The notes below the pieces were generated by a model that was not told the DNA's origin, ran no database searches, and saw nothing but the letters and a program-made list of their open reading frames with translations. Below, in pieces: positions 1 through 13,126 of a DNA stretch of 13,126 nucleotides (its first letter is position 1; each line of letters begins with the position of its first letter). This stretch comes from a virus (lineage: Duplodnaviria; Heunggongvirae; Uroviricota; Caudoviricetes), in IMG/VR virus record IMGVR_UViG_2718217868_000002, positions 1-13,126 of that record. One strand, written 5' to 3'. The translations under genes were made by a program, and so were the position numbers.

Positions 1-900
1 TTAACGCAACAGTGGACAATCTGGTGGTAATCGACAACGCAACGCTGCCGGAAGTATTTCAATATGAAAATTTTGCCCACTCAACGGTTCGCCATCAAGA
101 TTAAAGGTGATGTCGTGTGGTGCCTGAATATCAAACCACGACGAAGCGCCTTCGATAATATTCGGGTTATCTTCGTCAGATTTTAAGGTTGATACGAGAG
201 CCGGAAGTATTTCATCGCCGGTAAAAATGCGCAGTTGCAGCAAGCCATCGTTAATTAACGCGTTCGGACACAATTGCTGACCGCCACCGGCCTGACGCCC
301 GTTACCAATACCAATGACCAGGGCGTCACCTTGCCAGTGAAAGTTTTCACCGCGGATTTCACAACGGTCCGGTTGCAGAGTATCCATACGCATTAAGCCA
401 TGAATGATGTAAGAGACGCTACCCAGCGCGGCTTTTAATTTTTCCGGCGTTTCTGTGGTAATACGCGTCCCAAATCCGCCTGTCGCCATATTAATAAAAC
501 AGGTTTGTTTGTTGACCTGCGCCATATCTATCGCAATGGCGTCACCGGCAATTGCCAGTTTCAGCGCCTTATCCAGTGCCTCAGGAATCCCTACACTGGT
601 GGCAAAATCATTGGCGGTTCCTAATGGCAAAATTCCCAGCGCGGGTATGTCATCCCCCTCACACTGAATCAACGCCGTAGAAACTTCATTAATGGTGCCA
701 TCGCCACCACCGGCAATCACCGTTGCGACGCCCAACTTCCGGGCCTCCTCTACATATCGTGCGGCATCGCCTTTCTCCCAGGTGACCCGCACATGGATCG
801 TCATTCCTTCCTCACGCAACAGCATAATTGCTTCGCGCAAGGGTAGATTGTCAGTACTTTTGCCATTAAGAATCAGTAAGCTGGCGGGAAATTCTGCCAT
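1..900 (-). CDS. yegS: Lipid kinase YegS (diacylglycerol-kinase catalytic-domain family)
   Basis: 299-aa ORF on the minus strand, ATG at 898-900, TAA at 1-3. Glycine-rich nucleotide-binding motif [13 protein letters not shown]. Recognised from memory as E. coli YegS; GC-rich, host-like codon usage. Confidence 0.9.
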
Positions 901-1305
901 GATCGTATGTGCCTTTATGATTGGTCTGTAGATAGTGTAGAGCAGAAAACAAAAGGTGGAGTCAGAACAGGATGAAAGTCGGAGGATAAAAAGTCAGTTC
1001 AAGTATGGAGGATTCAGTGGTTACCACCAGGAGCTTGCAATGGGGACAGCGAATACTAACGGCTGCCACCGATAAATTTCAAAAAAGAGCATATACCTAA
1101 TATTCAACTAAACAGTGGCATCTTCAATATAATATATTAAAGCCCCCATGGAGTTACCCTGAAGGGCCTCAATGTCCGTAATTCCTACTTATGTAGGAAA
1201 TGTTGTACAGAACATTTATTATAATCCTATTCAATTATAATAATCATGCCATTATTATATTTAAACACTAGAGAGTGTCGTTGGTATTTAATGGGGGAAG
1301 GTGAG

Positions 1306-1623
1306 ATGAAAAAGATAGCTGCTATATCATTAATTAGTATTTTTATTATGTCTGGTTGTGCTGTGCATAATGATGAGACAAGTATCGGTAAATTTGGTCT
1401 TGCATATAAAAGTAATATTCAGCGTAAACTCGATAACCAATACTACACCGAAGCCGAAGCTTCTTTAGCCAGGGGTAGAATATCTGGTGCAGAAAATATA
1501 GTAAAAAATGATGCAACTCATTTCTGTGTTACTCAGGGCAAAAAAATGCAAATAGTTGAGCTGAAGACAGAAGGTGTAGGATTACATGGTGTCGCTCGTC
1601 TGACATTCAAATGTGGAGAGTGA
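1306..1623 (+). CDS. yegR: Small putative lipoprotein YegR (105 aa)
   Basis: ATG at 1306 preceded by GGGGGAAGGTGAG (Shine-Dalgarno-like). N-terminus MKKIAAISLISIFIMSGC is a signal peptide with lipobox-like MSGC. The track ORF starts at 1246, but that extension lacks an RBS and precedes the signal peptide. AT-rich gene. Confidence 0.8.
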   Translation: MKKIAAISLISIFIMSGCAVHNDETSIGKFGLAYKSNIQRKLDNQYYTEAEASLARGRISGAENIVKNDATHFCVTQGKKMQIVELKTEGVGLHGVARLTFKCGE

Positions 1624-1685
1624 GAATATTTTTTGGTAAGCGTCAAATATGCGCGTTCTGGCTGTGCGTAGCCGGAACCTGTGGG

Positions 1686-1718
1686 AGCACGATGCCGATA
1701 AGTGAAAGGCATCGTGCT
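1686..1718. repeat. Perfect 11-bp inverted repeat (AGCACGATGCC / GGCATCGTGCT) with 11-nt loop; stable stem-loop in the host-side arm of attL
   Basis: Read directly: 1686-1696 is the exact reverse complement of 1708-1718. No T-tract follows on either strand, so it is not a canonical intrinsic terminator. Confidence 0.6.
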
Positions 1719-1782
1719 ATGAAGGAGGATTCTATCGATGTGGTCAATGGAAGACGGTTACCAGAGATAGGGCTTATGCATA

Positions 1783-1809
1783 AAAAAATAAGCCCGTGTA
1801 AGGGAGATT
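1783..1809. other. P2-type attachment core (attL junction) AAAAAATAAGCCCGTGTAAGGGAGATT
   Basis: 27-bp sequence matching my recollection of the phage P2 att core, lying about 80 bp downstream of the int stop codon, where P2 attP is expected. Flanked by a 7-bp inverted repeat GGCTTAT (1771-1777) / ATAAGCC (1788-1794). Confidence 0.6.
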
Positions 1810-1888
1810 TAGGGTGTCACCAGTAGGGGCTTTCAACGGTACAATGCGGGTTTGAGCGGCATAAATTACCACTGAAAGCCCTTAAACG

Positions 1889-2902
1889 TTACTCTACTGT
1901 GGACACTGTGTGGACACTCTCGGCCTCAGTACCACCTCTTAGCGGATTAAGAGAAATGGCGTCCTGAAGGTACTCTGGCGCAAAGTGAGCGTAAACCATA
2001 GTTTGCTCAATCCGCGTGTGACCTAGTATCCGTTGTAGCGTGATAATACTTCCTCCATTAATCATGAAATGAGTGGCAAAGCTGTGCCTTAGTGCATGTG
2101 TGGCTTGCCCCATTGGCAAATCCGGTTTTATTGCTTTCATTGTTCGTCTGAAGCGAGGGTAATCAGCATCAGGGAATAAAAAACCTCGTTTGTTATCCGC
2201 GATCATTTTGGCAACAGCCTCTGAGATCGGGACGGTGCGTGGTTTGTTTGTTTTCGTTTTAACAAACGTGACGCGGTTATGGATGATATTTTCTGCTTTC
2301 AAACGAGCTGCTTCTCCCCAACGTGCTCCAGTACTCAGGCAAAGAATCGCAATCTTTTTATTGTCGCCGTCAAGAGCAGCAAGCAGTAAGGCAATTTCTT
2401 CCTGCGTGAGATAGCCTGTGTCTGGTTTTTCCTCCTTAAGCCTTTTTGTCCCTCTGATAGGGTGCTCACCAAAGAATAACTCCGCTTCAATCAGGGCTGT
2501 AAACATGCCGCTAATACATGTTAAATCACGATTGATACTCGAAGGTTTAATACCCTGACTTCTTCGGGTGGCGCAGTACTGGCTGATAAGCGATTTCGTA
2601 ATTTGAAATGCGCATGGGTCATTCGTTATTTTTGTGAAGATTTCAATTTTTCCAAGATTAGATTTCCCATGCTCTTCGTGTTTACCCTTTAAATCCCACC
2701 AGATCTGTGTCAGCTCCGACAGACGTCGCTTGTCTGTTGGTTTTGATAGCCATTCTTTATTGTGGTGGTTGTACAACGTGTATTTCTCGAAAGCGACAGC
2801 TTCGCTTTTCTTATCAAACTTCCTACGGATGCGTTTTCCATTACGTCCAGTAGGGCGGATGTCCACTTCATATCGACCATCATCGAGTTTTTTGATTGCC
2901 AT
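1889..2902 (-). CDS. int: P2-type tyrosine integrase (337 aa)
   Basis: ATG at 2900-2902 (minus) with GGAGGG RBS upstream; TAA at 1889-1891. C-terminal catalytic region with HALRHSFAT...LGH...Y (R-H-R-Y tyrosine recombinase signature). Length and N-terminus MAIKKLDDGRYEVDIRP match phage P2 Int as I recall it. Confidence 0.95.
   Translation of the reverse strand: MAIKKLDDGRYEVDIRPTGRNGKRIRRKFDKKSEAVAFEKYTLYNHHNKEWLSKPTDKRRLSELTQIWWDLKGKHEEHGKSNLGKIEIFTKITNDPCAFQITKSLISQYCATRRSQGIKPSSINRDLTCISGMFTALIEAELFFGEHPIRGTKRLKEEKPDTGYLTQEEIALLLAALDGDNKKIAILCLSTGARWGEAARLKAENIIHNRVTFVKTKTNKPRTVPISEAVAKMIADNKRGFLFPDADYPRFRRTMKAIKPDLPMGQATHALRHSFATHFMINGGSIITLQRILGHTRIEQTMVYAHFAPEYLQDAISLNPLRGGTEAESVHTVSTVE
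1898..1918. repeat. Tandem direct repeat TGTGGACACT x2 (1898-1907 and 1909-1918); candidate arm-type Int binding sites (P' arm)
   Basis: Two 10-bp identical copies one helical turn apart, overlapping the 3' end of int. Assignment as Int arm sites is from recollection of P2 arm-site consensus (TGTGGACA-like), not verified. Confidence 0.4.
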
Positions 2903-3017
2903 CAGAAAACCCTCCGAGTGGTGTGTTTTTTGGCGACTACTAATCGCTTTTTTCGTGGTGGCTGAAATTTAGCCACCAATAGTAGGCACTTGTGATGAAT
3001 ATATTCACGATGAATTG

Positions 3018-3317
3018 TTAACCAGTCTTTTGACCGGAGTGGGGCGACGTTGTTTCGTTTTGCCCAAAGTGTGCGAGAGCGGGCGCAATTTGCCCGGACT
3101 CAGGAGCGATCTGATTGGTCATGAACCATAAAGTGTATTTGGTGAATTGTGGGGTCTGCAGGATGTTCATCATGACATCTGTTGGAGGTGTTGAACGACC
3201 ACTTTCATAGTAACTCAGCGTGCCATACGGAACCCCTGTTAAATCAGCAAGTTGTTGTCTGCTCAAATACTCTGATTTTCGCATTAAGACTATCTTCTCG
3301 CTTATCGTGTTTGACAT
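3018..3317 (-). CDS. C: Immunity repressor C (99 aa, P2 C-like, helix-turn-helix)
   Basis: 99-aa ORF divergent from cox; HTH-like segment LSRQQLADLTGVPYGTLSYYESG. Position (between int and cox) and size match P2 C. Confidence 0.9.
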   Translation of the reverse strand: MSNTISEKIVLMRKSEYLSRQQLADLTGVPYGTLSYYESGRSTPPTDVMMNILQTPQFTKYTLWFMTNQIAPESGQIAPALAHFGQNETTSPHSGQKTG

Positions 3318-3352
3318 GGTGTTTAGATCTCAATAGTATTTAGTTTAGATGT
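3311..3352 (+). promoter_or_regulatory. Early promoter Pe with C-operator direct repeats
   Basis: -35 TTGACA (3311-3316), 17-bp spacer, -10 TAGTAT (3334-3339). Two 10-bp direct repeats GTTTAGATCT (3321-3330) and GTTTAGATGT (3343-3352), 22 bp centre to centre, flank the -10. This is the P2-type arrangement of C operator half-sites, from memory of P2 biology. Confidence 0.55.
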
Positions 3353-3380
3353 AGATTGTTTAGTGCTTGGATGTGGGCAC

Positions 3381-3408
3381 TAAAAGGCATTATAAGGCAT
3401 TAAACGCA
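3381..3408. promoter_or_regulatory. Three phased cox-box-like repeats (TAAAAGGCA, TATAAGGCA, TTAAACGCA) overlapping a candidate Pc -10 (TATAAT on minus strand, 3389-3394)
   Basis: Tandem 9-bp repeats with about 10-bp periodicity upstream of cox; resemble the Cox recognition consensus TTAAA(G/C)NCA as I recall it. The Pc -35 is not convincingly identified. Confidence 0.45.
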
Positions 3409-3431
3409 ATTCATGAGGGCTGGAGGACGAC

Positions 3432-3707
3432 ATGAGCAAGCAAGTAACACTCATGACTGATGCGATTCCTTATCAGGAGTTCGCAAAACTAATAGGAAAA
3501 TCGACAGGAGCGGTTCGTCGGATGATCGATAAAGGAAAGCTGCCTGTAATTGATATGACCGATCCACAATCAGCTTCAGGTCGTGCAGGTGAATATTGGG
3601 TATACCTTCCGGCATGGAATAACGGACTAAAACTGGCTTATGAAAGCCGCCCTAAAGAGATTCGTGACGGCTGGTTGATGTGGTTAGGTCTCGGTGAACC
3701 ACGTTAA
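3432..3707 (+). CDS. cox: Cox (excisionase / Pc repressor, 91 aa)
   Basis: ATG at 3432 preceded by GGAGGA (3422-3427). 91 aa, first gene of the rightward early operon, as in P2. Confidence 0.9.
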   Translation: MSKQVTLMTDAIPYQEFAKLIGKSTGAVRRMIDKGKLPVIDMTDPQSASGRAGEYWVYLPAWNNGLKLAYESRPKEIRDGWLMWLGLGEPR

Positions 3708-3717
3708 GGAGAACCGT

Positions 3718-3888
3718 ATGAATGAGCCTCGTTGTATTGCTCAGTTACTGCGTAACGAAAGCCCCAGGGCGATTGACTTCAACATCACCCACGGTAAGGG
3801 GCGTAAGGGAATCATTATCCGCACCAAAAAACAGAGTCCGTTAAAAAAGGCTCTGACCTTTCTGAAAAGCCGGAGGGTATGGAAATGA
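3718..3888 (+). CDS. Small early protein, P2 orf78-like (56 aa)
   Basis: ATG at 3718 with AAGGAG RBS (3706-3711). Basic small protein. The track ORF start at 3694 overlaps the cox 3' end and lacks an RBS. Stop overlaps the B start (ATGA). Confidence 0.6.
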   Translation: MNEPRCIAQLLRNESPRAIDFNITHGKGRKGIIIRTKKQSPLKKALTFLKSRRVWK

Positions 3889-4385
3889 CAGTGATGACGC
3901 TCAATCTCGTTGAAAAACAGCCAGCAACTATGCGCCGGATAATTGGTAAGCATCTGGCCGTCCCTCGCTGGCAGGAGACATGCGATTATTATAATCAGAT
4001 GATGGAACGTGAACGGCTAACGGTTTGCTTCCATGCGCAGTTAAAACAGCGTCACGCAACGATGCGTTTTGAAGAAATGAACGACGTCGAACGTGAACGA
4101 CTGGTATGTGCAATTGATGAATTGCGTGGGGCATTCTCAAAACGCCGTCAGGTTGGCGCAAGTGAGTATGCATATATTAGTTTTTTAACAGTCAGTCAGC
4201 GTCGCACTTTATTTATGCACGCACGACTGACAGAAAAAGAATTTAACCAGCCATACTGGCGAATTAATGAAGAATCATGTTACTGGCGTGATGCTTTATT
4301 CCGTGCATTACGTGAATTATTCAGTCTGTTTGAGTATGCACCGACAATTCTGACGTCGGTAAAACCAGAGCAATATCTGCATTAA
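3885..4385 (+). CDS. B: Replication protein B (166 aa; P2 B-like, helicase-loader function)
   Basis: ATG at 3885 (7 nt after GGAGGG). Size and position match P2 gene B. Confidence 0.85.
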   Translation: MTVMTLNLVEKQPATMRRIIGKHLAVPRWQETCDYYNQMMERERLTVCFHAQLKQRHATMRFEEMNDVERERLVCAIDELRGAFSKRRQVGASEYAYISFLTVSQRRTLFMHARLTEKEFNQPYWRINEESCYWRDALFRALRELFSLFEYAPTILTSVKPEQYLH

Positions 4386-4448
4386 GTAATTAACCAGAGT
4401 TTTTAACGCACTTAATTGTGCGGGGCTTCTTTTTGCCTGGAGAAAGTC

Positions 4449-4673
4449 ATGCATACAGTTTCTGAAAATCAGTGCGGTATATACGCATTACTGCTGCAAC
4501 AGGCCAGAACCGAAGCACAGGCCGACGCTGCGACGCGCTTTTCTTCTCATCTTGACGCCATGATTCGCCACATCACAAAGGCGGAGTTATCCCGCGTGGA
4601 GATAGTCGAGCTGCTCAGTCAGGAGTCGGAAAAATTTCACAATATCGGATTGTCTCGTGGGGAGGTGCTTTGA
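4449..4673 (+). CDS. Hypothetical early protein (P2 orf80-like)
   Basis: ATG at 4449 after GGAGAAAG; stop TGA at 4671-4673 overlaps the next start. Start choice uncertain (track ORF begins at 4416). Confidence 0.5.
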
Positions 4674-4975
4674 TGTCCTGTTCTCATTCAGTTGTATTAC
4701 TGAATAACGCCTTAAAAATCGCCGTTATGGAAAATGGCGATTTGTCTCTTATTCAACTTGGTCTTGATAAAGAAAAGCGCGACATAACTGAATCTGTTAT
4801 CGCGATTTATCAGAGCGAATTAAACCTCCTGTCTGATGTGATCAATTTACTTGTGAAACGCGCTGTATTTCACAAGCAAATTTCCTCAGTGGATGAACTG
4901 ACAAAATTAACGACAGAACTCGCCAGCTATTGCGCTGATGAATTTAAGAAACTGAACGACAAAAGGAACTGGTAA
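4673..4975 (+). CDS. Hypothetical early protein (P2 orf81-like)
   Basis: ATG at 4673 (TGATG overlap with upstream stop), GGAGG RBS at 4661-4665; 100 aa. Confidence 0.6.
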   Translation: MSCSHSVVLLNNALKIAVMENGDLSLIQLGLDKEKRDITESVIAIYQSELNLLSDVINLLVKRAVFHKQISSVDELTKLTTELASYCADEFKKLNDKRNW

Positions 4976-5199
4976 TGCCGGACAACGTAGATTTCATTCA
5001 GGAACAACAGGCTGAATTACTGGAGCGCCAGATTAACGCGGCAAGGGTAAAACATTGCGGTGCTTCTGCGCTGGTTTGCGAAGAGTGTGACGCGCCAATA
5101 CCTGCTGCCCGTCGTGCGGCTTATCCGTCAGCCACGCGTTGTGTTTCCTGTCAGTCAGTCTTTGAAGCAAAAAACAAACATTACCGGAGAACGGCATGA
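4975..5199 (+). CDS. TraR/DksA-family C4 zinc-finger protein (P2 orf82-like, 74 aa)
   Basis: CEEC-x17-CVSC (Cys35/38 and Cys56/59) is the CxxC-x17-CxxC spacing of zf-DksA/TraR proteins. ATG at 4975 with TAATG overlap. Confidence 0.7.
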   Translation: MPDNVDFIQEQQAELLERQINAARVKHCGASALVCEECDAPIPAARRAAYPSATRCVSCQSVFEAKNKHYRRTA

Positions 5200-5471
5200 G
5201 TATTCGTATTGAAATTGGCGAACGTTATGTCGTTACCAGTGACAGCTTCCAGTTTATTCTCCACGAGAAAAAGAGAGCGGAAAGCGGTAAAAACGCCGGT
5301 CAGGAATGGCTGGCGGTGGTTGGTTATTACCCGAAATTAAGCCAGCTCGTTTCCGGCCTGATGCATCACGATATTCTGACCGGAAGCGCAAAGTCTTTTG
5401 CTGATTTAAACGCGCAGGTTGAGCAACTCAGCAAGCGTTGTTCAGAGGCTTTTGGCTCATATGGCCGTTAA
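5196..5471 (+). CDS. Hypothetical early protein (P2 orf83-like, 91 aa)
   Basis: ATG at 5196 (ATGA overlap with upstream gene), GGAGA RBS. Confidence 0.6.
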   Translation: MSIRIEIGERYVVTSDSFQFILHEKKRAESGKNAGQEWLAVVGYYPKLSQLVSGLMHHDILTGSAKSFADLNAQVEQLSKRCSEAFGSYGR

Positions 5472-7773
5472 AGCCTCCGGGCGTTTTGTCCCTCCGTCAG
5501 CATTTGCCGCAGGCACCGGTAAGACGTTTACCGGTGCTTATGCATGGAACGCGCCACGCGAGGCCGTCGGGCGCGAAAGACCCCTTACACGTGACGAGAT
5601 GCGTCAGGTGCAAGGTGTTTTATCCACGATTAACCGCCTGCCTTACTTTTTGCGTTCGCTGTTTACTTCACGCTATGACTACATCCGGCGCAATAAAAGC
5701 CCGGTGCACGGGTTTTATTTCCTCACATCCACTTTTCAGCGTCGTTTATGGCCGCGCATTGAGCGCGTGAATCAGCGCCATGAAATGAACACCGACGCGT
5801 CGTTACTGTTTCTGGCAGAGCGTGACCACTATGCGCGCCTGCCGGGAATGAATGACAAGGAGCTGAAAAAATTTGCCGCCCGTATCTCATCGCAGCTTTT
5901 CATGATGTATGAGGAACTCTGCGATGCCTGGGTGGATGCCCATGGCGAAAAAGAATCGCTGTTTACGGATGAGGCGCAGGCTCACCTGTATGGTCATGTT
6001 GCTGGCGCTGCACGTGCTTTCAATATTTCCCCGCTCTACTGGAAAAAATACCGTAAAGGACAGATGACCACGAGGCAGGCATATTCTGCCATTGCCCGCC
6101 TGTTTAACGATGAGTGGTGGACTCATCAGCTTAAAGGCCAGCGTATGCGCTGGCATGAGGCGTTACTGATTGCTGTCGGGGAGGTCAATAAAGACCGTTC
6201 TCCTTATGCCAGTAAACATGCCATTCGTGATGTGCGTGCACGCCGCCAGGCAAATCTGGAATTTCTTAAATCGTGTGACCTTGAAAACAGGGAAACCGGC
6301 GAGCGCATCGACCTTATCAGTAAGGTGATGGGCAGTATTTCTAATCCTGAAATTCGCCGGATGGAGCTGATGAACACCATTGCCGGTATTGAGCGTTACG
6401 CCGCAGCAGAGGGTGATGTGGGGATGTTTATCACGCTGACCGCGCCGTCAAAGTATCACCCGACACGTCAGGTCGGAAAAGGCGAAAGTAAAACCGTCCA
6501 GCTAAATCACGGCTGGAACGATGAGGCATTTAATCCAAAGGATGCGCAGCGTTATCTCTGCCATATCTGGAGCCTGATGCGCACGGCATTCAAGGATAAT
6601 GATTTACAGGTCTACGGTTTGCGTGTCGTCGAGCCACACCACGACGGAACGCCGCACTGGCATATGATGCTTTTTTGTAATCCACGCCAGCGTAACCAGA
6701 TTATTGAAATCATGCGTCGCTATGCGCTCAAAGAGGATGGCGACGAAAGAGGAGCCGCGCGAAACCGTTTTCAGGCAAAACACCTTAACCGGGGCGGTGC
6801 TGCGGGATATATCGCGAAATACATCTCAAAAAACATCGACGGCTATGCACTGGATGGTCAGCTCGATAATGATACCGGTAGGCCGCTGAAAGACACAGCT
6901 GCGGCTGTTACCGCATGGGCGTCAACGTGGCGCATTCCGCAATTTAAAACGGTTGGTCTGCCGACAATGGGGGCTTACCGTGAACTACGCAAATTGCCTC
7001 GCGGCGTCAGCATTGCTGATGAGTTTGACGAGCGCGTCGAGGCTGCACGCGCCGCCGCAGACAGTGGTGATTTTGCGTTGTATATCAGCGCGCAGGGTGG
7101 GGCAAATGTCCCGCGCGATTGTCAGACTGTCAGGGTCGCCCGTAGCCCGTCGGATGACGTTAACGAGTATGAGGAAGAAGTCGAGAGAGTGGTCGGCATT
7201 TACGCGCCGCATCTCGGCGCGCGTCATATTCATATCACCAGAACGACGGACTGGCGCATTGTTCCGAAAGTGCCGGTCTTTGAGCCTTTGACTTTAAAAA
7301 GCGGCATCGCCGCGCCTCGGAGTCCTGTCAATAACTGTGGAAAGCCTGCCAGCAGTGATACTTCGTTACCGGCTCCCACACCTTCTGAACATGCCGCAGC
7401 AGTGCTTAATCTGGTAGATGACGGTGTTATCGAATGGAGTGACCCGGAGGTTGTGAGGGCGCTCAGGGATGCATTAAAACACGGCCTGAAAACACCAAAT
7501 CGTCAGCAAAGAAACGGAAGCCCGTTAAAACTACATGAAATAGCACCGTCGGCCAGACTGACCAGGTCGGAACGAATGCAAATCACCCGTATCCGCGTTG
7601 ACCTTGTTCAGAATGGTATCAGGCCTCAGCGATGGGAGCTTGAGGCGTTGGTTCGAGGAGCGAGAGTAAATTATGGTGATATGTCATTCAAATTTCCAAT
7701 TGATGATCGATTTTATGATGATGTTAACTCTTTGAATTTATGGAGTATTGAGTCTCGTGTGAACTTCACATAA
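5461..7773 (+). CDS. A: Replication initiation protein A (rolling-circle initiator, P2 A-like)
   Basis: About 770 aa from ATG 5461 (MAVKASGRFVPP...); the track ORF begins at a TTG at 5419. Large GC-rich gene in the position of P2 A. The last ~35 codons (about 7665-7773) switch abruptly to AT-rich composition. Confidence 0.85.
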   Translation: MAVKASGRFVPPSAFAAGTGKTFTGAYAWNAPREAVGRERPLTRDEMRQVQGVLSTINRLPYFLRSLFTSRYDYIRRNKSPVHGFYFLTSTFQRRLWPRIERVNQRHEMNTDASLLFLAERDHYARLPGMNDKELKKFAARISSQLFMMYEELCDAWVDAHGEKESLFTDEAQAHLYGHVAGAARAFNISPLYWKKYRKGQMTTRQAYSAIARLFNDEWWTHQLKGQRMRWHEALLIAVGEVNKDRSPYASKHAIRDVRARRQANLEFLKSCDLENRETGERIDLISKVMGSISNPEIRRMELMNTIAGIERYAAAEGDVGMFITLTAPSKYHPTRQVGKGESKTVQLNHGWNDEAFNPKDAQRYLCHIWSLMRTAFKDNDLQVYGLRVVEPHHDGTPHWHMMLFCNPRQRNQIIEIMRRYALKEDGDERGAARNRFQAKHLNRGGAAGYIAKYISKNIDGYALDGQLDNDTGRPLKDTAAAVTAWASTWRIPQFKTVGLPTMGAYRELRKLPRGVSIADEFDERVEAARAAADSGDFALYISAQGGANVPRDCQTVRVARSPSDDVNEYEEEVERVVGIYAPHLGARHIHITRTTDWRIVPKVPVFEPLTLKSGIAAPRSPVNNCGKPASSDTSLPAPTPSEHAAAVLNLVDDGVIEWSDPEVVRALRDALKHGLKTPNRQQRNGSPLKLHEIAPSARLTRSERMQITRIRVDLVQNGIRPQRWELEALVRGARVNYGDMSFKFPIDDRFYDDVNSLNLWSIESRVNFT

Positions 7774-7776
7774 TAT
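7748..7776 (+). promoter_or_regulatory. Candidate sigma70 promoter for the cargo operon
   Basis: -35-like TTGAGT (7748-7753), 17-bp spacer, -10-like TAATAT (7771-7776), about 50 nt upstream of the SIR2 start. Weak matches; by-eye only. Confidence 0.3.
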
Positions 7777-7827
7777 GGGGCCGTTGTAGGTGTTTGAATA
7801 ATCAGACTTCAATTCAAAGGGATAATT

Positions 7828-9075
7828 ATGGTTATTTATCAAGGTGGTAAGATAATATCTGAAGATGATTTTTATTCTCATCTTTATTCGTTATGTCAGT
7901 TGGATAATGTAGGGGTTCTTTTAGGCGCGGGAGCATCGGTCGGATGTGGCGGCCAAACTATGAAGCAGGTATGGCAGTTTTTTAAATATGAACATCCTGA
8001 TCTATTGAATTTGTTACTAGAAAAATACTTATTGGTTGACAAAACTGAATCTGAACAAGATATAGTTAATGTTGAGCTTCTAATTGATGAAGTAACTAAA
8101 TTCTTGTCTGTGGCCAAAACAAGACGTAATGAAGACGAACAAAAAGAAATTAGTTTAATATTAAGTGCTTTGTATAAACAAGTAACAAAGGCTGCATTGT
8201 TAACTGGAGAAGAGTTTGGTTGTAAAAATCAAGGGAAGAAAAAACAGTTTAAGTCTCATAAAGAATTAATTTCAAAGTTGATTTCAAATAGGCAGCCGGG
8301 ACAATCGGCTCCGGCACTTTTTACTACCAACTATGATTTGGCATTAGAGTGGGCAGCTGAAGATTTAGGAATTCAGCTATTTAATGGTTTTTCAGGATTG
8401 CATACAAGACAATTTTATCCTCAAAATTTTGATTTGGCATTTAGAAATGTCAATGCAAAAGGGGAGGCTAGATTTGGTCATTATCACGCTTATCTATATA
8501 AATTGCATGGCTCTCTTACATGGTATCAGGATGATTTTTTAATAGTTAATGAGATAAGTGCATCTCAGGCATATGATAATTACATTAAAAATATTATTAA
8601 TGGTGACGGTTTTTACTATGGTCAACATTTAATTTATCCGGGGGCTAATAAATATAGCCATACAATTGGTTTTGTTTACGGTGAAATGTTTAGACGTTTT
8701 GGCGAGTTTTTGTCAAAACCTCAAACCGCTTTGTTTATTAATGGGTTTGGGTTTGGTGATTATCATATAAACAGAATTGTTTTTGGTGCTTTGTTAAATC
8801 CGTCATTTCATGTTGTTATTTATTACCCTGATCTGGAGAATGCTTTAGATAAAGTTAGTAGAGGCGTTGCTTCTGAAGGTGAAAAGGCAATTGATGCTTT
8901 AAAAAATATGCAATTCAATCAAGTGACTATCGTGGGTGGGGGGGCAGATGCTTACTTTGATAGTTTTGTGAAACATCTTCCTTATCCGGTGTTGTTCCCA
9001 AGAGAAAATACTGTTGATGACTTGGTTGAAGCTATTTCTAAATTGTCTAAAGGGGAAGGGAATGTCGCATTTTAA
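7828..9075 (+). CDS. SIR2-family (sirtuin-like / DHS-like NAD-binding) protein, predicted NAD+ hydrolase effector (415 aa)
   Basis: ATG at 7828 with AAGGGA RBS. Glycine-rich loop GAGASVGCGG (aa 33-42, nt 7924-7953). TTNYD motif (aa 166-170, nt 8323-8337). HG(S) motif in KLHGSL (His227, nt 8506-8508). Order and spacing match defence-associated SIR2 domains (ThsA/SIR2_2-like). Gene is about one-third GC against ~55-60% in flanking phage genes (hand count on sample 60-mers). Confidence 0.8.
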   Translation: MVIYQGGKIISEDDFYSHLYSLCQLDNVGVLLGAGASVGCGGQTMKQVWQFFKYEHPDLLNLLLEKYLLVDKTESEQDIVNVELLIDEVTKFLSVAKTRRNEDEQKEISLILSALYKQVTKAALLTGEEFGCKNQGKKKQFKSHKELISKLISNRQPGQSAPALFTTNYDLALEWAAEDLGIQLFNGFSGLHTRQFYPQNFDLAFRNVNAKGEARFGHYHAYLYKLHGSLTWYQDDFLIVNEISASQAYDNYIKNIINGDGFYYGQHLIYPGANKYSHTIGFVYGEMFRRFGEFLSKPQTALFINGFGFGDYHINRIVFGALLNPSFHVVIYYPDLENALDKVSRGVASEGEKAIDALKNMQFNQVTIVGGGADAYFDSFVKHLPYPVLFPRENTVDDLVEAISKLSKGEGNVAF

Positions 9076-10882
9076 ACTATCTGAATTATCTGCTATTGGG
9101 TATGTCGTTGGTCTGGAGGGCGAAAAAATAAGGATAAATCTTCATGAAGGATTGCAAGGTAGGCTCGCCTCTCATAGGGATGGTGTTAGTTCTGTTACTC
9201 AGCCTGGAGATTTGATCGGTTTTGATGCCGGAAATATTCTGGTTGTGGCTCGAGTTACAGATATGGCATTTGTCGAGGCTGATAAAGCACATAAGGCAAA
9301 AATAGGTACATCAGATATAGCAGATATGCCGTTAAGGCAAATAATAGCCTATGCAATAGGTTTTATTAGACGAGATATAGATGGATGTGTGTTTGTTTCG
9401 GAAGACTGGAGGTTACCTGCTCTGGGAGCATCCGCTGTCCCGTTAACATCTGATTTTTTAAATATCGTATATAGTATTGATAAAAATGATCTGGATAAAG
9501 CAATTGAGTTAGAAATAGATTCGAGGACTAAATCAGTTAAAATTTTAGCTAGCATTGATAAATTACTAACCAGGCATATGGCTGTTTTGGGCAGTACTGG
9601 ATATGGTAAATCTAATTTTAATGCTTTACTTACACGCCGCATTTCAGAACAGTACCCTAATGCAAGAATAGTAATTTTTGATATTAATGGCGAGTATTCT
9701 CAGGCTTTTGAAGGTGTTGCTAATGTTAAACATACTATTTTAGGTGAGTTACCAAAAGGAGAGTTTCCAAAACCACCTCTACAGAAAGGAGATATATTTT
9801 CTGAGAATGAACATTACTACTATAGAAAAATACCTTATCAAGCATTGGGATTTGCTGGGTTGATAAAATTACTACGCCCTAGTGATAAGACACAATTACC
9901 TGCATTAAGAAATGCGCTTAATGCTATAAATAGTGTTCATTTTTCCGATGATTCATTCTTTCTTAAGGATGAAGTAGGGGGCGTATTTAATATTTTTGAT
10001 GATTGTAGAGATGAAGGGCAAGAGCTTTTATCTGCGTGGTTGAGTTTCTTAAGAAGAGGGATGCTGTGTAAGGCAAATAAATGGCCGCCGTTTAAAAGTA
10101 TTGCTAACTTGGTTGCGGAGTTTGGTTGCGTGGCGGCGGATTCGCGAAAAGCTGGATCTAGTAAACGAGATGCTTTTAGCTATGGTAATGTTCTGCCATT
10201 GATTAAGATAATTCAACAGTTATCAGAGGATTCTAGATTCAAGTATGTTGTTGATTTAAATGGAGGTGGTGAATTATTAAGTGATGGCAAACATTGGGAA
10301 TTAGCTATGAGACAGGAAGTTGATTATTTCTTTGGTAAAGAAAAGGGAGAGGAGAATGACTGGAATATTCATATTGTTAATTTTAAGCATCTTTCACAAG
10401 ATCATGCTCCAATGCTGTTAAGTGCATTATTAGAAATGTTTGCTGAAGTTCTCTTTCTTAGGGGGCAAAACAAAGCTTTTCCAACCGTGTTACTTCTTGA
10501 AGAGGCGCACCACTATTTAAGAGATCCTTATTCTGAAGTTGATGCACAAATTAAAGCTTATGAAAGACTTGCTAAAGAAGGGCGTAAATTTAAATGTTCA
10601 CTTATTGTGAGCACACAACGACCATCAGAGCTTTCATCAACAGTATTAGCAATGTGTGCAAATTGGTTTTCGTTGCGCCTGACAAATGAGCGTGATTTGC
10701 AGACTTTACGGTATGCGATGGAAAGTGGAAATGAGTTAATGATTCGGCAGATTTCTGGGCTTCCAAGAGGAGATGCAATAGCGTTTGGTGCTGCTTTTAA
10801 TATACCCGTAAGAATTTCAATTCACCCTGCTGTACCCGGTCCGAGATCGTCTGACGCAAGTTATTCTCAAGAATGGCGATAA
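9062..10882 (+). CDS. HerA-like (FtsK/HerA superfamily) P-loop ATPase, 606 aa
   Basis: ATG at 9062 preceded by AGGGGAAGGGA; start lies 14 nt inside the upstream gene (translational coupling). Walker A GSTGYGKS (aa 177-184, nt 9590-9613). Walker B-like VLLLEEAHH (aa 476-484, nt 10487-10513). TQRP motif (aa 518-521, nt 10613-10624), characteristic of HerA/VirB4-type ATPases. N-terminal ~170 aa is consistent with a HAS-barrel. AT-rich like its partner. Confidence 0.8.
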   Translation: MSHFKLSELSAIGYVVGLEGEKIRINLHEGLQGRLASHRDGVSSVTQPGDLIGFDAGNILVVARVTDMAFVEADKAHKAKIGTSDIADMPLRQIIAYAIGFIRRDIDGCVFVSEDWRLPALGASAVPLTSDFLNIVYSIDKNDLDKAIELEIDSRTKSVKILASIDKLLTRHMAVLGSTGYGKSNFNALLTRRISEQYPNARIVIFDINGEYSQAFEGVANVKHTILGELPKGEFPKPPLQKGDIFSENEHYYYRKIPYQALGFAGLIKLLRPSDKTQLPALRNALNAINSVHFSDDSFFLKDEVGGVFNIFDDCRDEGQELLSAWLSFLRRGMLCKANKWPPFKSIANLVAEFGCVAADSRKAGSSKRDAFSYGNVLPLIKIIQQLSEDSRFKYVVDLNGGGELLSDGKHWELAMRQEVDYFFGKEKGEENDWNIHIVNFKHLSQDHAPMLLSALLEMFAEVLFLRGQNKAFPTVLLLEEAHHYLRDPYSEVDAQIKAYERLAKEGRKFKCSLIVSTQRPSELSSTVLAMCANWFSLRLTNERDLQTLRYAMESGNELMIRQISGLPRGDAIAFGAAFNIPVRISIHPAVPGPRSSDASYSQEWR

Positions 10883-11036
10883 TCTTGTGGGAGAATGTAA
10901 TAGGATAACGATAAGTGCATCTATCTGCATTAATTCGAATAAGGTTGAGAGGAGTTCAAAAACAAATTTAGACCGGCATTAGAGTGATTTAGATAGACAT
11001 ATGCAACTGCATTAAAACCGCCCCATGAAGCGGGCG

Positions 11037-11055
11037 GGCGAGGCGGGGAAAGCAC
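11037..11055. other. cos site: 19-nt P2-type cohesive-end sequence GGCGAGGCGGGGAAAGCAC
   Basis: Exact 19-mer matching my recollection of the P2 cohesive end, in the expected prophage position between the right-end accessory genes and Q. Preceded by a GC hairpin, CCGCCC (11018-11023) / GGGCGG (11032-11037). Confidence 0.55.
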
Positions 11056-11196
11056 TGCGCGCTGGCGGTGGTGCTGATTTTATTTTTTCAGCGTCTGAGC
11101 GCGTCGTGATGGCGTTTAGATTGTTAGCCGGGGCGTTGGTGTGTCTGCGGGCTGTTTTGTGCGGTGGTGAGCGTGTGAGGGCGTGATGGCGGGGTG

Positions 11197-11220
11197 TAAA
11201 AAAGCCGCCCGCAGGCGGCG
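11197..11220 (-). terminator. Rho-independent terminator downstream of Q
   Basis: GCCGCC (11204-11209) / GGCGGC (11214-11219) stem with CGCA loop, immediately followed on the minus strand by a T-run (plus-strand A-run 11198-11203), 4 nt after the Q stop codon. Confidence 0.65.
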
Positions 11221-11224
11221 ATGT

Positions 11225-12259
11225 TCAGCCGTTGTCAGTGTCCAGTGAGTAGTTTTTAAAGCGGATGACCTCCTGACCGAGCCAGCCGTTTATCTCGCGG
11301 ATCCTGTCCTGTAACGGGATAAGCTCATTGCGGACAAAGACCTTTGCCACTTTCTCAATATCACCCAGCGACCCGACGTTCTCCGGCTTGCCGCCCATCA
11401 ACTGAAAGGGGATGCGGTGCGCGTCCAGCAGGTCAGCGGCGCTGGCTTTTTTGATATTAAAAAAATCGTCCTTCGTTGCCACTTCACTGAGCGGGATAAT
11501 TTTAATGCCGTCAGCTTTCCCCTGCGGGGCATAGAGAAACAGGTTTTTAAAGTTGTTGCGGCCTTTCGACTTCACCATGTTTTCGCGAAGCATTTCGATA
11601 TCGTTGCGATCCTGCACGGCATCGGTAACGTACATGATGTATCCGGCATGAGCGCCGTTTTCGTAATACTTGCGGCGGAACAGCGTGGCTGACTCATTCA
11701 GCCAGGCAGAGTTAAGGGCGCTGAGATATTCCGGCAGGCCGTACAGCTCCTGATTAATATCCGGCTCCAGCAGATGAAACACGGAGCCAGGTGCGAAGGC
11801 TGTCGGCTCGTTGAAGGAAGGCACCCACCAGTAAACATCCTCCTCCACGCCACGGCGGGTATATTTTGCCGGTGAGGTTTCCAGTCTGATGACCTTGCCG
11901 GTGGTGCTGTAACGCTTTTCCAGAAACGCATTGCCGAACACCAGAAAATCCAGCACAAAGCGGCTGAAATCCTGCTGGGAAAGCCACGGATGCGGGATAA
12001 ATGTCGAGGCCAGAATATTGCGTTTGACGTAAATCGGGGAGCTGTGATGCACGGCAGCACGCAGGCTTTTTGCCAGACCGGTAAAGCTGATTGGTGGCTC
12101 ATACCATCTGCCGTTACTGATGCATTCGACGTAATCCAGAATGTCACGGCGGTCGAGTACCGGCACCGGCTCACCAAAGGTGAATGCCTCCATTTTCGGG
12201 GCGCTGGCGGTCATTTTTTTTGCCGCAGGTTGCGGTGTTTTCCCTTTTTTCTTGCTCAT
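11225..12259 (-). CDS. Q: Portal protein Q (344 aa, P2 Q-like)
   Basis: ATG at 12257-12259 (minus), TGA at 11225-11227. Size and sequence recognised as the P2 capsid portal protein; leftward-transcribed gene adjacent to cos, as in P2. Confidence 0.9.
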   Translation of the reverse strand: MSKKKGKTPQPAAKKMTASAPKMEAFTFGEPVPVLDRRDILDYVECISNGRWYEPPISFTGLAKSLRAAVHHSSPIYVKRNILASTFIPHPWLSQQDFSRFVLDFLVFGNAFLEKRYSTTGKVIRLETSPAKYTRRGVEEDVYWWVPSFNEPTAFAPGSVFHLLEPDINQELYGLPEYLSALNSAWLNESATLFRRKYYENGAHAGYIMYVTDAVQDRNDIEMLRENMVKSKGRNNFKNLFLYAPQGKADGIKIIPLSEVATKDDFFNIKKASAADLLDAHRIPFQLMGGKPENVGSLGDIEKVAKVFVRNELIPLQDRIREINGWLGQEVIRFKNYSLDTDNG

Positions 12260-12528
12260 CAGTAAAACTCCAGAATGGTGGATGTCAGCGGGGTGCTGAT
12301 ACCGGCGGTGAGTGGCTCATTTAACAGGGCGTGCATGGTCGCCCAGGCGAGGTCGGCGTGGCTGGCTTCCTCGCTGCGGCTGGCCTCATAGGTGGCGCTG
12401 CGCCCGCTGCTGGTCATGGTCTTGCGGATAGCCATAAACGAGCTGGTGATGTCGGTGGCGCTGACGTCGTATTCCAGACAGCCACGGCGGATAACGTCTT
12501 TTGCCTTGAGCACCATTGCGGTTTTCAT
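12259..12528 (-). pseudogene. P: Truncated terminase large subunit P (C-terminal ~90 codons only)
   Basis: Minus-strand frame that ends with a TGATG stop/start overlap onto Q, the P-Q operon arrangement. The frame is closed by a stop about 45 codons further upstream and the sequence beyond ~12540 instead reads as coding on the plus strand. An intact P would be about 590 aa. Upstream boundary approximate. Confidence 0.5.
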
Positions 12529-12540
12529 TTCCGGTGTGTG

Positions 12541-12624
12541 CCTCCTCTTGAAAACCTGACCCTGCGCCAGCGTATTACCGATAAATACCTGGCAAATCTG
12601 GTCACCTCGGTTAACAGCAATTAA
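12541..12624 (+). pseudogene. FI: 3' remnant of tail sheath gene FI (last ~28 codons)
   Basis: Plus-strand frame with host-typical codons (CTG, CGC, CAG, ACC) ending at TAA 12622-12624, directly upstream of the FII RBS AAGGAG (12624-12629). Assignment is by position relative to FII. Left boundary uncertain. Confidence 0.35.
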
Positions 12625-12636
12625 GGAGCCTGACCG

Positions 12637-12852
12637 ATGGCAATGCCGCGCAAACTCAAGTTAATGAACGTCTTTCTGAACGGCTACAGCTATCAGGGCG
12701 TTGCAAAGTCCGTCACGCTGCCAAAACTGACCCGTAAGCTCGAAAACTATCGCGGTGCGGGGATGAACGGCAGCGCACCGGTAGACCTCGGCCTTGATGA
12801 CGATGCTCTGTCAATGGAGTGGTCGCTCGGTGGATTCCCGGATTCGGTTATA
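12637..12852 (+). pseudogene. FII: Truncated tail tube gene FII (N-terminal 72 codons)
   Basis: ATG at 12637 after AAGGAG. N-terminus MAMPRKLKLMNVFLNGYSYQGVAKSVTLPKL... recognised as P2 FII. The reading frame breaks after ...GGFPDSVI (about 12852) and then runs to an early stop at 12898-12900. Confidence 0.6.
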
Positions 12853-12853
12853 T

Positions 12854-13126
12854 GCCACGAAAGCACAGGCCATGCGCGCCGCTCAGGCGAAGTGGGATAA
12901 ACTGCAACGGGGCGTTGCGGAGTTCTCCATCAGCCTGGCTACTGGTCGGGCAGATATTTACACGGAAACACCGGTCAAAGTGTCTGGCTTTAAGCGCGTC
13001 ATAGACGAGCAGGACTGGACAATCACTAAGGTGACACACTTTCTGAATAATAGTGGCTTCACGACGTCCTTAGAACTTGAGGTAAGGCTTTCTGATGTGG
13101 AGTACGAAACAGAAGATGATGAGTGA
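12854..13126 (+). pseudogene. D: C-terminal fragment of tail protein D (~90 codons), fused out of frame to FII'
   Basis: Second frame reads ...ATKAQAMRAAQAKWDKLQRGVAEFSISLATGRADIYTETPVKV...SDVEYETEDDE with stop at 13124-13126. Recognised as the C-terminus of P2 gpD (the K-12 yegZ-like remnant). The N-terminal part of the track ORF (12794..) is an out-of-frame read of FII. Confidence 0.55.

Follow-up and report, generated by a model that had tools for sequence, protein, structure and literature searches.

A defective P2-like prophage with a SIR2-HerA cassette between yegR and yegQ of Escherichia coli H6

The viral record IMGVR_UViG_2718217868_000002 of IMG/VR (positions 1 to 13,126; this whole stretch of 13,126 bases is hereafter called the window) is 100% identical to positions 1939991 to 1953116 of the E. 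coli H6 chromosome (NZ_CP010170.1). It contains a P2-like prophage remnant located between yegR and yegQ, in which genes for a SIR2 protein and a HerA ATPase precede the packaging site cos. Our analysis suggests, with a probability that we estimate at about 0.8, that this element is a defective P2-like (Peduovirus) prophage residing at the P2 attachment site, which was made in place by two deletions and has been inherited vertically in one clone. A preliminary description of the window had put forward another possibility, namely, that the retained int, cox, B, A, and cos make the remnant a helper-mobilizable, satellite-like carrier of the SIR2/HerA cassette. The evidence that bears on both views is presented below.

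Two deletions in the late region of a P2-like prophage

The window was aligned to the genome of P2 (NC_001895) using BLAST, and 48 kb around the window in the H6 chromosome was inspected together with the RefSeq annotation. Five blocks colinear with P2 were found, with identities ranging from 96.7 to 98.7%, and the prophage genes follow the P2 order. Positions beyond the window end are given here, and throughout the text, as window equivalents.

1783–7675: attP core through most of A (P2 24356–30248, 97.8% identity)
11008–11055: right end of P2 (P2 33546–33593)
11037–12539: cos, Q, and the last 281 nt of P (P2 1–1501)
12538–12854: end of FI and start of FII (P2 18756–19072, 98.7% identity)
12849–13554: end of D, ogr, and the attP arm and core (P2 23677–24382)

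As can be seen from these blocks, P2 positions 1502–18755 (deletion 1; 17.25 kb, P through FI) and 19073–23676 (deletion 2; 4.6 kb, FII through D) are missing. The preliminary description had stated that the virion genes are gone, and this proved correct: both segments are absent from the H6 genome and not just from the window. It had also placed the remainder of the prophage outside the window, which turned out to be wrong, as nothing but ogr and attR (428 bp) is located past the end of the window. The element lacks a full complement of genes for head, tail, lysis, and terminase, with only fragments of P, FI/FII, and D remaining, and it is therefore a defective member of the P2-like prophages. 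In the RefSeq annotation, the order around the remnant is yegS, yegR, integrase, helix-turn-helix repressor, cox, five small open reading frames (ORFs) with B among them, replication endonuclease (A), SIR2 protein, ATP-binding protein, and portal; these are followed by four fragmentary pseudogenes, namely, the terminase C terminus, a small piece, tail tube, and D, and then by ogrK and yegQ. The deletion junctions and the gene fragments that surround them are as follows.

12260–12539, − strand: P′, a pseudogene made of the last 281 nt of the large terminase gene (P2 1221–1501 only; partial in RefSeq)
12538–12539: deletion junction 1, P2 1501 joined to P2 18756, with 2-nt microhomology
12540–12854, + strand: FI′/FII′ fragment, the last 87 nt of the sheath gene and the first 218 nt of the tube gene (P2 18756–19072, 98.7% identity; partial in RefSeq)
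12849–12854: deletion junction 2, P2 19072 joined to P2 23677, with 6-nt microhomology (TATATG/TATCTG)
12855–13126, + strand: D′, the last ~278 nt of tail gene D (P2 23677–23954)

At one of the junctions, …CATTTCCGGTGTGT is followed directly by GCCTCCTCTTG…; at the other, …GGATTCGGTTATATG is followed by CCACGAAAGC…. Microhomologies of 2 and 6 nt are a signature of illegitimate recombination and, judging from this signature, both deletions are illegitimate, microhomology-mediated events.

The element is bounded by a duplicated 27-bp core accompanied by Int arm, integration host factor (IHF), and Cox sites, as in P2-like prophages, and its attachment site arms are identical to those of P2 or of the isolated phage Peduovirus P22H1.

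1783–1809: attL core AAAAAATAAGCCCGTGTAAGGGAGATT, 27 of 27 positions identical to the P2 attP core (position 1783 is the first base of this core)
1826–1923: Cox-binding region and Int P′ arm site of attL, 100% identical to P2 24399–24496, which is so annotated in the P2 record
13528–13554: attR core, 428 bp past the window end, 27 of 27 positions identical

The P arm, IHF site, and core of attR are 100% identical to P22H1. Excision between the two cores would yield a circle of 11,745 bp. A tRNA scan of the window found no tRNA, and a tRNA gene was therefore rejected as the attachment site.

What is left of the prophage is very close to P2. The two share the att core, int, C and cox (100% at the amino acid level), B, A with the replication origin (ori), cos (19 of 19 positions), Q, and gene order; shared proteins are 93 to 100% identical, and shared segments are 96 to 100% identical at the nucleotide level. 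The remnant differs from P2 by the two deletions, which removed almost all head, lysis, and tail genes; by the presence of SIR2-HerA in the place where P2 has orf91, tin, and old; and by the sequence of ~30 C-terminal codons of A.

Full-length siblings and other remnants at the locus

In strain 13E0767, the same site is occupied by a full-length P2-like prophage with the same cassette and all late genes, with an insertion sequence in the tail-fiber gene H. The locus in this strain is 99.2% identical to the window over 12.5 kb, from base 1 to base 12539, i.e., exactly up to junction 1. Four more genomes match up to the junction 1 breakpoint and look full-length. Full-length P2-like prophages with SIR2-HerA at this site (e.g., in 13E0767, 2013C-3264, and PEC395) are 99.2% identical to the H6 locus from yegS to P2 nucleotide 1501 and have the same cassette and cos spacer. 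The one inspected, 13E0767, keeps the late genes, and the H6 element is a deletion derivative of its type.

When H6 and 13E0767 were compared, no differences were detected in window positions 1783–5460 (3.7 kb), in SIR2, or in the spacer that contains cos (10883–11224, 100% identical); the differences that were present are clustered in A and Q. The host flanks of the two strains differ by 1.7%. Since these phage segments (100% identity) are more alike than the host flank (97.4 to 98.3%), the phage appears to have arrived recently and the deletions to have occurred afterwards in place. An intact phage would have spread recently relative to the divergence of its hosts, the deletions would have happened at the site of integration, and the resulting remnant would have been inherited vertically. 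The intact state of int, cox, B, A, cos, and Q is best seen as a consequence of this presumed recency; because the ORFs are intact on account of their youth, they cannot be read as a sign of selection for mobility.

The distribution of the deletions is narrow. Of 5,426 complete E. coli genomes, only 2, from the sister strains H5 and H6, fully cover the segment that extends across the two junctions. One further assembly, GCA_045581035.1, was recovered by exact matching to the HerA variant of H6. It has the same remnant at this locus, with 2 single-nucleotide polymorphisms relative to H6 in 21.8 kb, of which 8 kb are host flank, and belongs to the same clone. Exact searches with a junction 1 31-mer yielded no matches in IMG/VR viral contigs, in metagenome contigs of JGI, or in 185,579 species representatives (one genome each). 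There is, thus, no sign of horizontal movement of this element, which is found in one clone at the ancestral site.

The ogr gene, located just beyond the window, encodes a product in which 71 of 72 amino acids are identical to P2 (H9P). The His9Pro change (window equivalent 13233) affects a residue two positions past the first CxxC of the zinc finger and is found in H6, whereas the sister assembly GCA_045581035.1, P2, and P22H1 lack it. This change may represent the first step in inactivation of the late activator.

When the whole locus was used as a query, many derivatives that had arisen by independent deletions, with differing junctions, were recovered between yegS and yegQ. Four of them were measured.

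18AR0366, 10.5 kb: Q truncated and joined to D′
FT130, 10.8 kb: retron-type cassette; P′-M′-D′
MB7671, 13.75 kb: O and N kept; ogr truncated
23CRST025, 15.8 kb: L to S and lysis genes kept

The spans of others imply sizes of up to ~23 kb. The sizes of the remnants form a continuum, and the sets of late genes that they retain are arbitrary, as is predicted by random decay and not by a size-constrained packaged element. The process observed here looks like ordinary prophage decay at the known P2 defense hotspot.

An alternative to neutral decay is domestication, whereby selection keeps the early region and the cassette for immunity and defense while lysis and late genes are shed, so that the retained set is adaptive. 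Consistent with this view, at least nine differently sized remnants at the locus keep the int-A region, although the apparent universality of this retention is biased, as the query included the early region and remnants without it would rank low. A cassette, too, is present in the four remnants listed above, and none of their deletions lies outside the late region; conservation of defense genes in defective P2 prophages has been reported as well (PMC13586616). We nevertheless consider domestication unlikely, if still worth weighing. The H6 remnant is too recent to reveal purifying selection, given the absence of differences over 3.7 kb, and the K-12-type remnants at this site presumably keep only D′ and ogr.

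Several deletion endpoints recur in different strains. The left endpoint in gene P, located after TTTCCGG(C/T)GTGT(A) (P2 1501/1502), is found in H6, 23CRST025, and PE15, where it is joined to FI, M, and T, respectively. A right endpoint in M (5588–5591) is common to FT130 and 23CRST025, and a right endpoint in D (23803/23804) is common to FT130 and JS316. Derivation of the H6 remnant from 23CRST025 or PE15 by nested deletion was rejected, since each of them keeps segments that others lost. Because the structures of the remnants are not derivable from one another in this way, the reused endpoints look like hot spots for illegitimate recombination. Two other explanations for the breakpoint in P were considered and rejected. 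By eye, it resembles the att core (shared CGTGTA, ~11 of 22 positions), as an Int pseudo-site would, and cos (~10 of 18 positions), as a pseudo-cos would, but the partner sequences lack either likeness, and the three breaks fall at the same nucleotide.

P2 remnants with odd junctions, which join baseplate J to sheath FI or capsid N to FI, were also observed in other E. coli (including FORC_082, NCTC9041, and E3), and E. coli B and C strains carry FI-FII′-D′ remnants. Internal late-region deletions of P2 prophages thus appear to be very common.

The SIR2-HerA cassette and its possible exchange by recombination

The cassette, which occupies positions 7828–10882, consists of two genes.

7828–9075, + strand: SIR2 gene (PADLOC SIR2, E = 3.2e-188, full length; Pfam SIR2_2)
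9062–10882, + strand: HerA ATPase gene (PADLOC HerA, E = 1.4e-270, full length; Pfam DUF87/HerA)

These adjacent genes fit the PADLOC and Pfam profiles of the SIR2-HerA defense system, a system characterized by anti-phage activity with depletion of NAD+, and, on the strength of these matches, they most likely provide the cell with anti-phage defense. Phage sensing by SIR2-HerA has been reported as mostly unknown (PMC13017515), and a search of the literature for SIR2-HerA together with P2 returned no test of the system against P2-like phages. The cassette is AT-rich relative to the phage backbone, the GC content being 33 to 39% in the SIR2 region versus ~52% in the flanks. Its location between A and cos/Q coincides with the variable defense hotspot described between gpA and gpQ, near cos, in P2-like phages (Rousset et al. 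2022, PMC9122126). In related prophages, the same position is occupied by a retron reverse transcriptase, Dcm, DUF7380, AAA ATPases, and others. According to the decay scenario, the cassette would already have been present in the full-length ancestor, in the hotspot between A and cos, before the deletions took place.

Defective P2-like prophages with conserved defense genes have been described before (NAR 2026, PMC13586616), and the H6 remnant shares with them, and with the hotspot of PMC9122126, a cassette that lies between gpA and gpQ by cos. In that survey, replication genes were pseudogenized with greater frequency than other core genes, whereas in H6 both replication and integration genes are intact and only virion genes have been lost. 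The survey leaves open whether defective P2 prophages are domesticated or still exchange genes (PMC13586616).

Exchange of genes could allow the cassette to leave H6 without the rest of the remnant. A superinfecting P2-like phage that crosses over in A and in cos-Q would take SIR2-HerA away in a complete virion. Homology to P2 flanks the cassette on both sides (5.9 kb at 97.8% on one side and 1.5 kb at 96.7% on the other), and swapping has been put forward as a model for the hotspots of P2 and P4 (PMC13586616). Mosaic structures at the locus point in the same direction: 23CRST025 has the same cassette (SIR2, 100%; HerA, 99.9%) and nearly identical host flanks (99.9 to 100%) but a different immunity region (76% identity in C-cox), and FT130 carries a retron-type cassette in a backbone with H6-type int, C, and cox. 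In addition, the differences between H6 and 13E0767 that are clustered in A and Q look like recombination tracts. However, the mosaics could predate the deletions and have formed among intact phages, and there is no sign that the remnant itself acted as a donor. We consider such recombinational export a serious possibility that nonetheless falls somewhat short of even odds. The cassette is more likely to travel on sibling phages that are intact, or by recombining into incoming phages, than by packaging of the remnant.

In 23CRST025, recombination at the occupied site replaced either the immunity region or the cassette. This strain also differs from H6 in its deletions.

Possible mobilization by a helper and the putative P4-like sequences of H6

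The preliminary description regarded int, cox, B, A, cos, and Q as intact, and comparison with the proteins and sites of P2 confirmed this for each of them.

1889–2902, − strand: int, tyrosine integrase (337 amino acids, 336 of 337 identical to P2 Int; Pfam Int_N and Phage_integrase)
3018–3317, − strand: C, immunity repressor of the P2 immunity class (99 of 99 amino acids identical to P2 C)
3318–3431: Pe/Pc transcriptional switch with operators O1 and O2 (2 mismatches to P2)
3432–3707, + strand: cox, excision directionality factor and Pc repressor (91 of 91 amino acids identical to P2 Cox)
3718–5471, + strand: early operon with orf78, B (3885–4385), and orf80-83 (all ORFs intact)
5461–7773, + strand: A, rolling-circle replication initiator (intact 770–amino acid ORF; Pfam Phage_GPA, E = 2e-124)
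11008–11120: cos region, flanks conserved with P2
11037–11055: 19-nt cohesive-end sequence GGCGAGGCGGGGAAAGCAC, 19 of 19 positions identical to P2 cosL and cosR
11225–12259, − strand: Q, portal gene (intact ORF, 340 of 344 amino acids identical to P2 Q)

Internal stops are absent from int, C, Cox, B, and Q. B is identical to its P2 counterpart at 162 of 166 positions, and the products of orf78 and orf80-83 are 93 to 100% identical. The Pe/Pc mismatches (P2 25970 and 25995) do not affect the annotated operators and promoter hexamers. A retains the YxxxY active-site tyrosines (YIAKY) and contains the ori nick site near 7319, in a region conserved with P2; its last ~30 codons, while unlike those of P2, are the same as in the full-length sibling prophages. 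Thus, at the sequence level neither a broken int or A nor a missing attR was found, the ORFs and the attR core being intact. As for packaging recognition, which had been ascribed to cos with the adjacent Q, both are intact; Q, though, plays no part in this recognition and is retained next to cos incidentally. Since the late promoter of Q has been lost (the start site of the P operon, P2 3016, falls within deletion 1) together with the upstream part of P, Q is probably silent.

The central proposal was that a superinfecting P2-like phage could excise, replicate, and package the remnant. All cis sites (attL, attR, ori, and cos) and the early genes are available for this, while immunity, the cis action of A, and size stand against it. 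Excision would require Int and Cox. For the element to move, its own repressor would have to be inactivated, and another element would have to supply P2-type capsids, terminase, and tails.

The repressor is the first obstacle. C most likely gives the host P2-class superinfection immunity, as would be expected from its identity to P2 C, and each repressor recognizes only the operators of its own immunity class (PMC2995052). Helpers of P2 immunity, which cannot grow in such cells, are therefore excluded, and the helper would have to be a heteroimmune or virulent relative. Since a heteroimmune helper leaves C in place, cox, B, and A of the remnant would stay repressed. The second obstacle is A, which reportedly acts in cis in P2: cis action is said to have been described by Lindahl in 1970 and, to judge by a title, by Liu, Saha and Haggård-Ljungquist in 1993. 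The A protein of a helper would therefore not substitute for that of the remnant.

The third obstacle is size. P2 functions package cos replicons in trans with strong size dependence (PMC9942202). The 11,745-bp circle amounts to 35% of the P2 genome, and three copies of it (35,235 bp) would amount to 104.9%; three P4 genomes (103.8% of P2) enter P2 capsids only at low efficiency (PMC6893505). Engineered P2/P4 cos cosmids, which resemble the remnant in being replicons with cos, are packaged by the P2 machinery in trans with an efficiency tied to the P2 or P4 genome size (PMC9942202). In contrast to the remnant, which must first be derepressed and excised, they replicate constitutively, unrepressed and unintegrated.

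No gene for hijacking or sensing a helper, be it through derepression by a helper protein, capsid redirection, or packaging interference, was found in the remnant: everything outside 7676–11007 is homologous to P2, and this interval holds SIR2 and HerA only. The repressor is P2 C, for which P4 epsilon, and not a P2-like helper, is the known inactivator; the element is not seen in unrelated lineages or at several sites, and sibling remnants have no conserved size or architecture. The label "satellite-like" is therefore not supported. In its gene content, with excision, replication, and packaging-site functions kept, the remnant instead resembles a helper-complemented defective prophage of the Sp13 type. 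Mobilization is conceivable in principle, conditional on several unlikely coincidences. That a superinfecting phage excises, replicates, and packages the remnant and spreads SIR2-HerA at a biologically meaningful rate seems to us improbable, despite the intact sites and genes, the packaging of cos-bearing replicons by the P2 machinery, and the precedent of Sp13.

The remnant was also compared to P4 and P4-like satellites, with which it has in common a P2-type cos, a length of ~11.6 kb (11,745 versus 11,624 bp for P4), an integrase, the absence of virion genes, and a cos-adjacent defense hotspot. The genes that define P4, i.e., psu, delta, sid, alpA, and epsilon, together with the alpha primase gene (PMC8628076), are all missing from the remnant, which, unlike P4, uses P2 A rolling-circle replication and P2 C immunity and has no sign of horizontal spread. 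The different sizes of its siblings suggest that the similarity in length is a coincidence.

To look for sequences related to P4 or to a helper in H6, pieces of P2 and P4 were joined to an H5/H6-specific marker of 887 nt, and the number of matching places in H6 was read (baseline, 2). With pieces of P2 N, J, and T, the number stayed at 2 by megablast and was 3 in distant mode. It rose to 4 with pieces of P4 sid, psu, and alpha and to 3 with an orf151-epsilon-cI piece. From these match counts, which do not give a location, H6 appears to carry P4-like satellite sequence. A complete close P2-family helper prophage in H6 was rejected, indirectly, on the grounds that N, J, and T added no places by megablast. 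P4-like satellite sequence and a virion-less P2 remnant thus appear to coexist in H6 without a resident helper.

This coexistence raises the question of a P4-assisted route, in which infection by a helper activates the resident P4-like satellite, epsilon inactivates C, and the remnant excises, replicates, and enters small capsids directed by Sid. P4 epsilon is the known natural inactivator of P2 C and acts through Thr67, the residue of P2 C required for sensitivity to this antirepressor (PMC2995052). The C protein of the remnant keeps Thr67 and is predicted to be epsilon-sensitive. The circle is close in length to P4, the match counts rise by two places with the sid, psu, and alpha pieces and by one with the epsilon piece, and the P2 record notes activation of a P4 late promoter by P2 Cox. 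On the other hand, the P4-like sequences are inferred solely from match counts; a helper would still be required, while no close helper is present in H6 (the N, J, and T pieces added no places by megablast and one in distant mode); the size match may be due to chance, as sibling remnants range from 10.5 to 15.8 kb and, judging by span, up to ~23 kb; and no spread of the remnant is seen in genome, viral, and metagenome collections. We consider this route very improbable. A related and likewise very improbable view is that the remnant is a nascent satellite born from its own helper, a P4-sized mini-P2 whose C would be inactivated by the co-resident P4-like epsilon and which, upon infection by a P2-like phage, would travel either in small capsids made by Sid or, in trimeric form, inside P2 capsids. 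Such a satellite would have been created by deletion and not by the acquisition of hijacking genes, and it would unite defense cargo with cos, an integration module, and an autonomous replicon.

Some of these observations weigh against decay in place followed by vertical inheritance. The functions for excision, replication, and cos recognition are all intact, so that the sequence is compatible with a mobile life. The circle is 101% of the P4 length and would suit small capsids, even though we attribute this to coincidence, and the P4-like sid/psu, alpha, and epsilon-region homologs of H6 could derepress the remnant and provide such capsids. Databases of complete genomes undersample strains. 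Last, there is the precedent of Sp13, a P2-like prophage of O157 Sakai that has no head genes and lacks most morphogenetic genes and yet was circularized upon excision, amplified, and packaged in an experiment, its DNA being recovered in DNase-resistant particulate form (Asadulghani et al. 2009, PMC2669165). Sp13 differs from the H6 remnant, which is known from sequence alone, in having a P4 epsilon-like gene and 17 other prophages in the same strain, and its packaging is inefficient.

If the remnant were mobilized, this would mean that a plain deletion can turn a helper phage into a defense-carrying hitchhiker and that "dead" prophages still move immune genes. On present evidence, it is one more case of a known pattern, in which a P2-like prophage decays in place and leaves behind a hotspot cassette and an immunity gene. 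With its cis sites intact, its deletions mapped exactly, and a P4-like satellite apparently co-resident, the remnant is a well-defined test substrate for the exchange or export of defense genes by defective P2 prophages.

Two Logan contigs with the same HerA end near cos: that of SRR25337803 at window position 11057, 2 nt past cos, and that of SRR30281780 at position 11029. A physical cos end was rejected as the reason for the first of these ends, since the break occurs one k-mer (k = 31 assumed) after the start of P2/P4 cos identity; the nearby break of the second contig further disfavors this explanation. The breaks fit a k-mer repeat boundary, which implies that another cos-bearing element is present in those samples.

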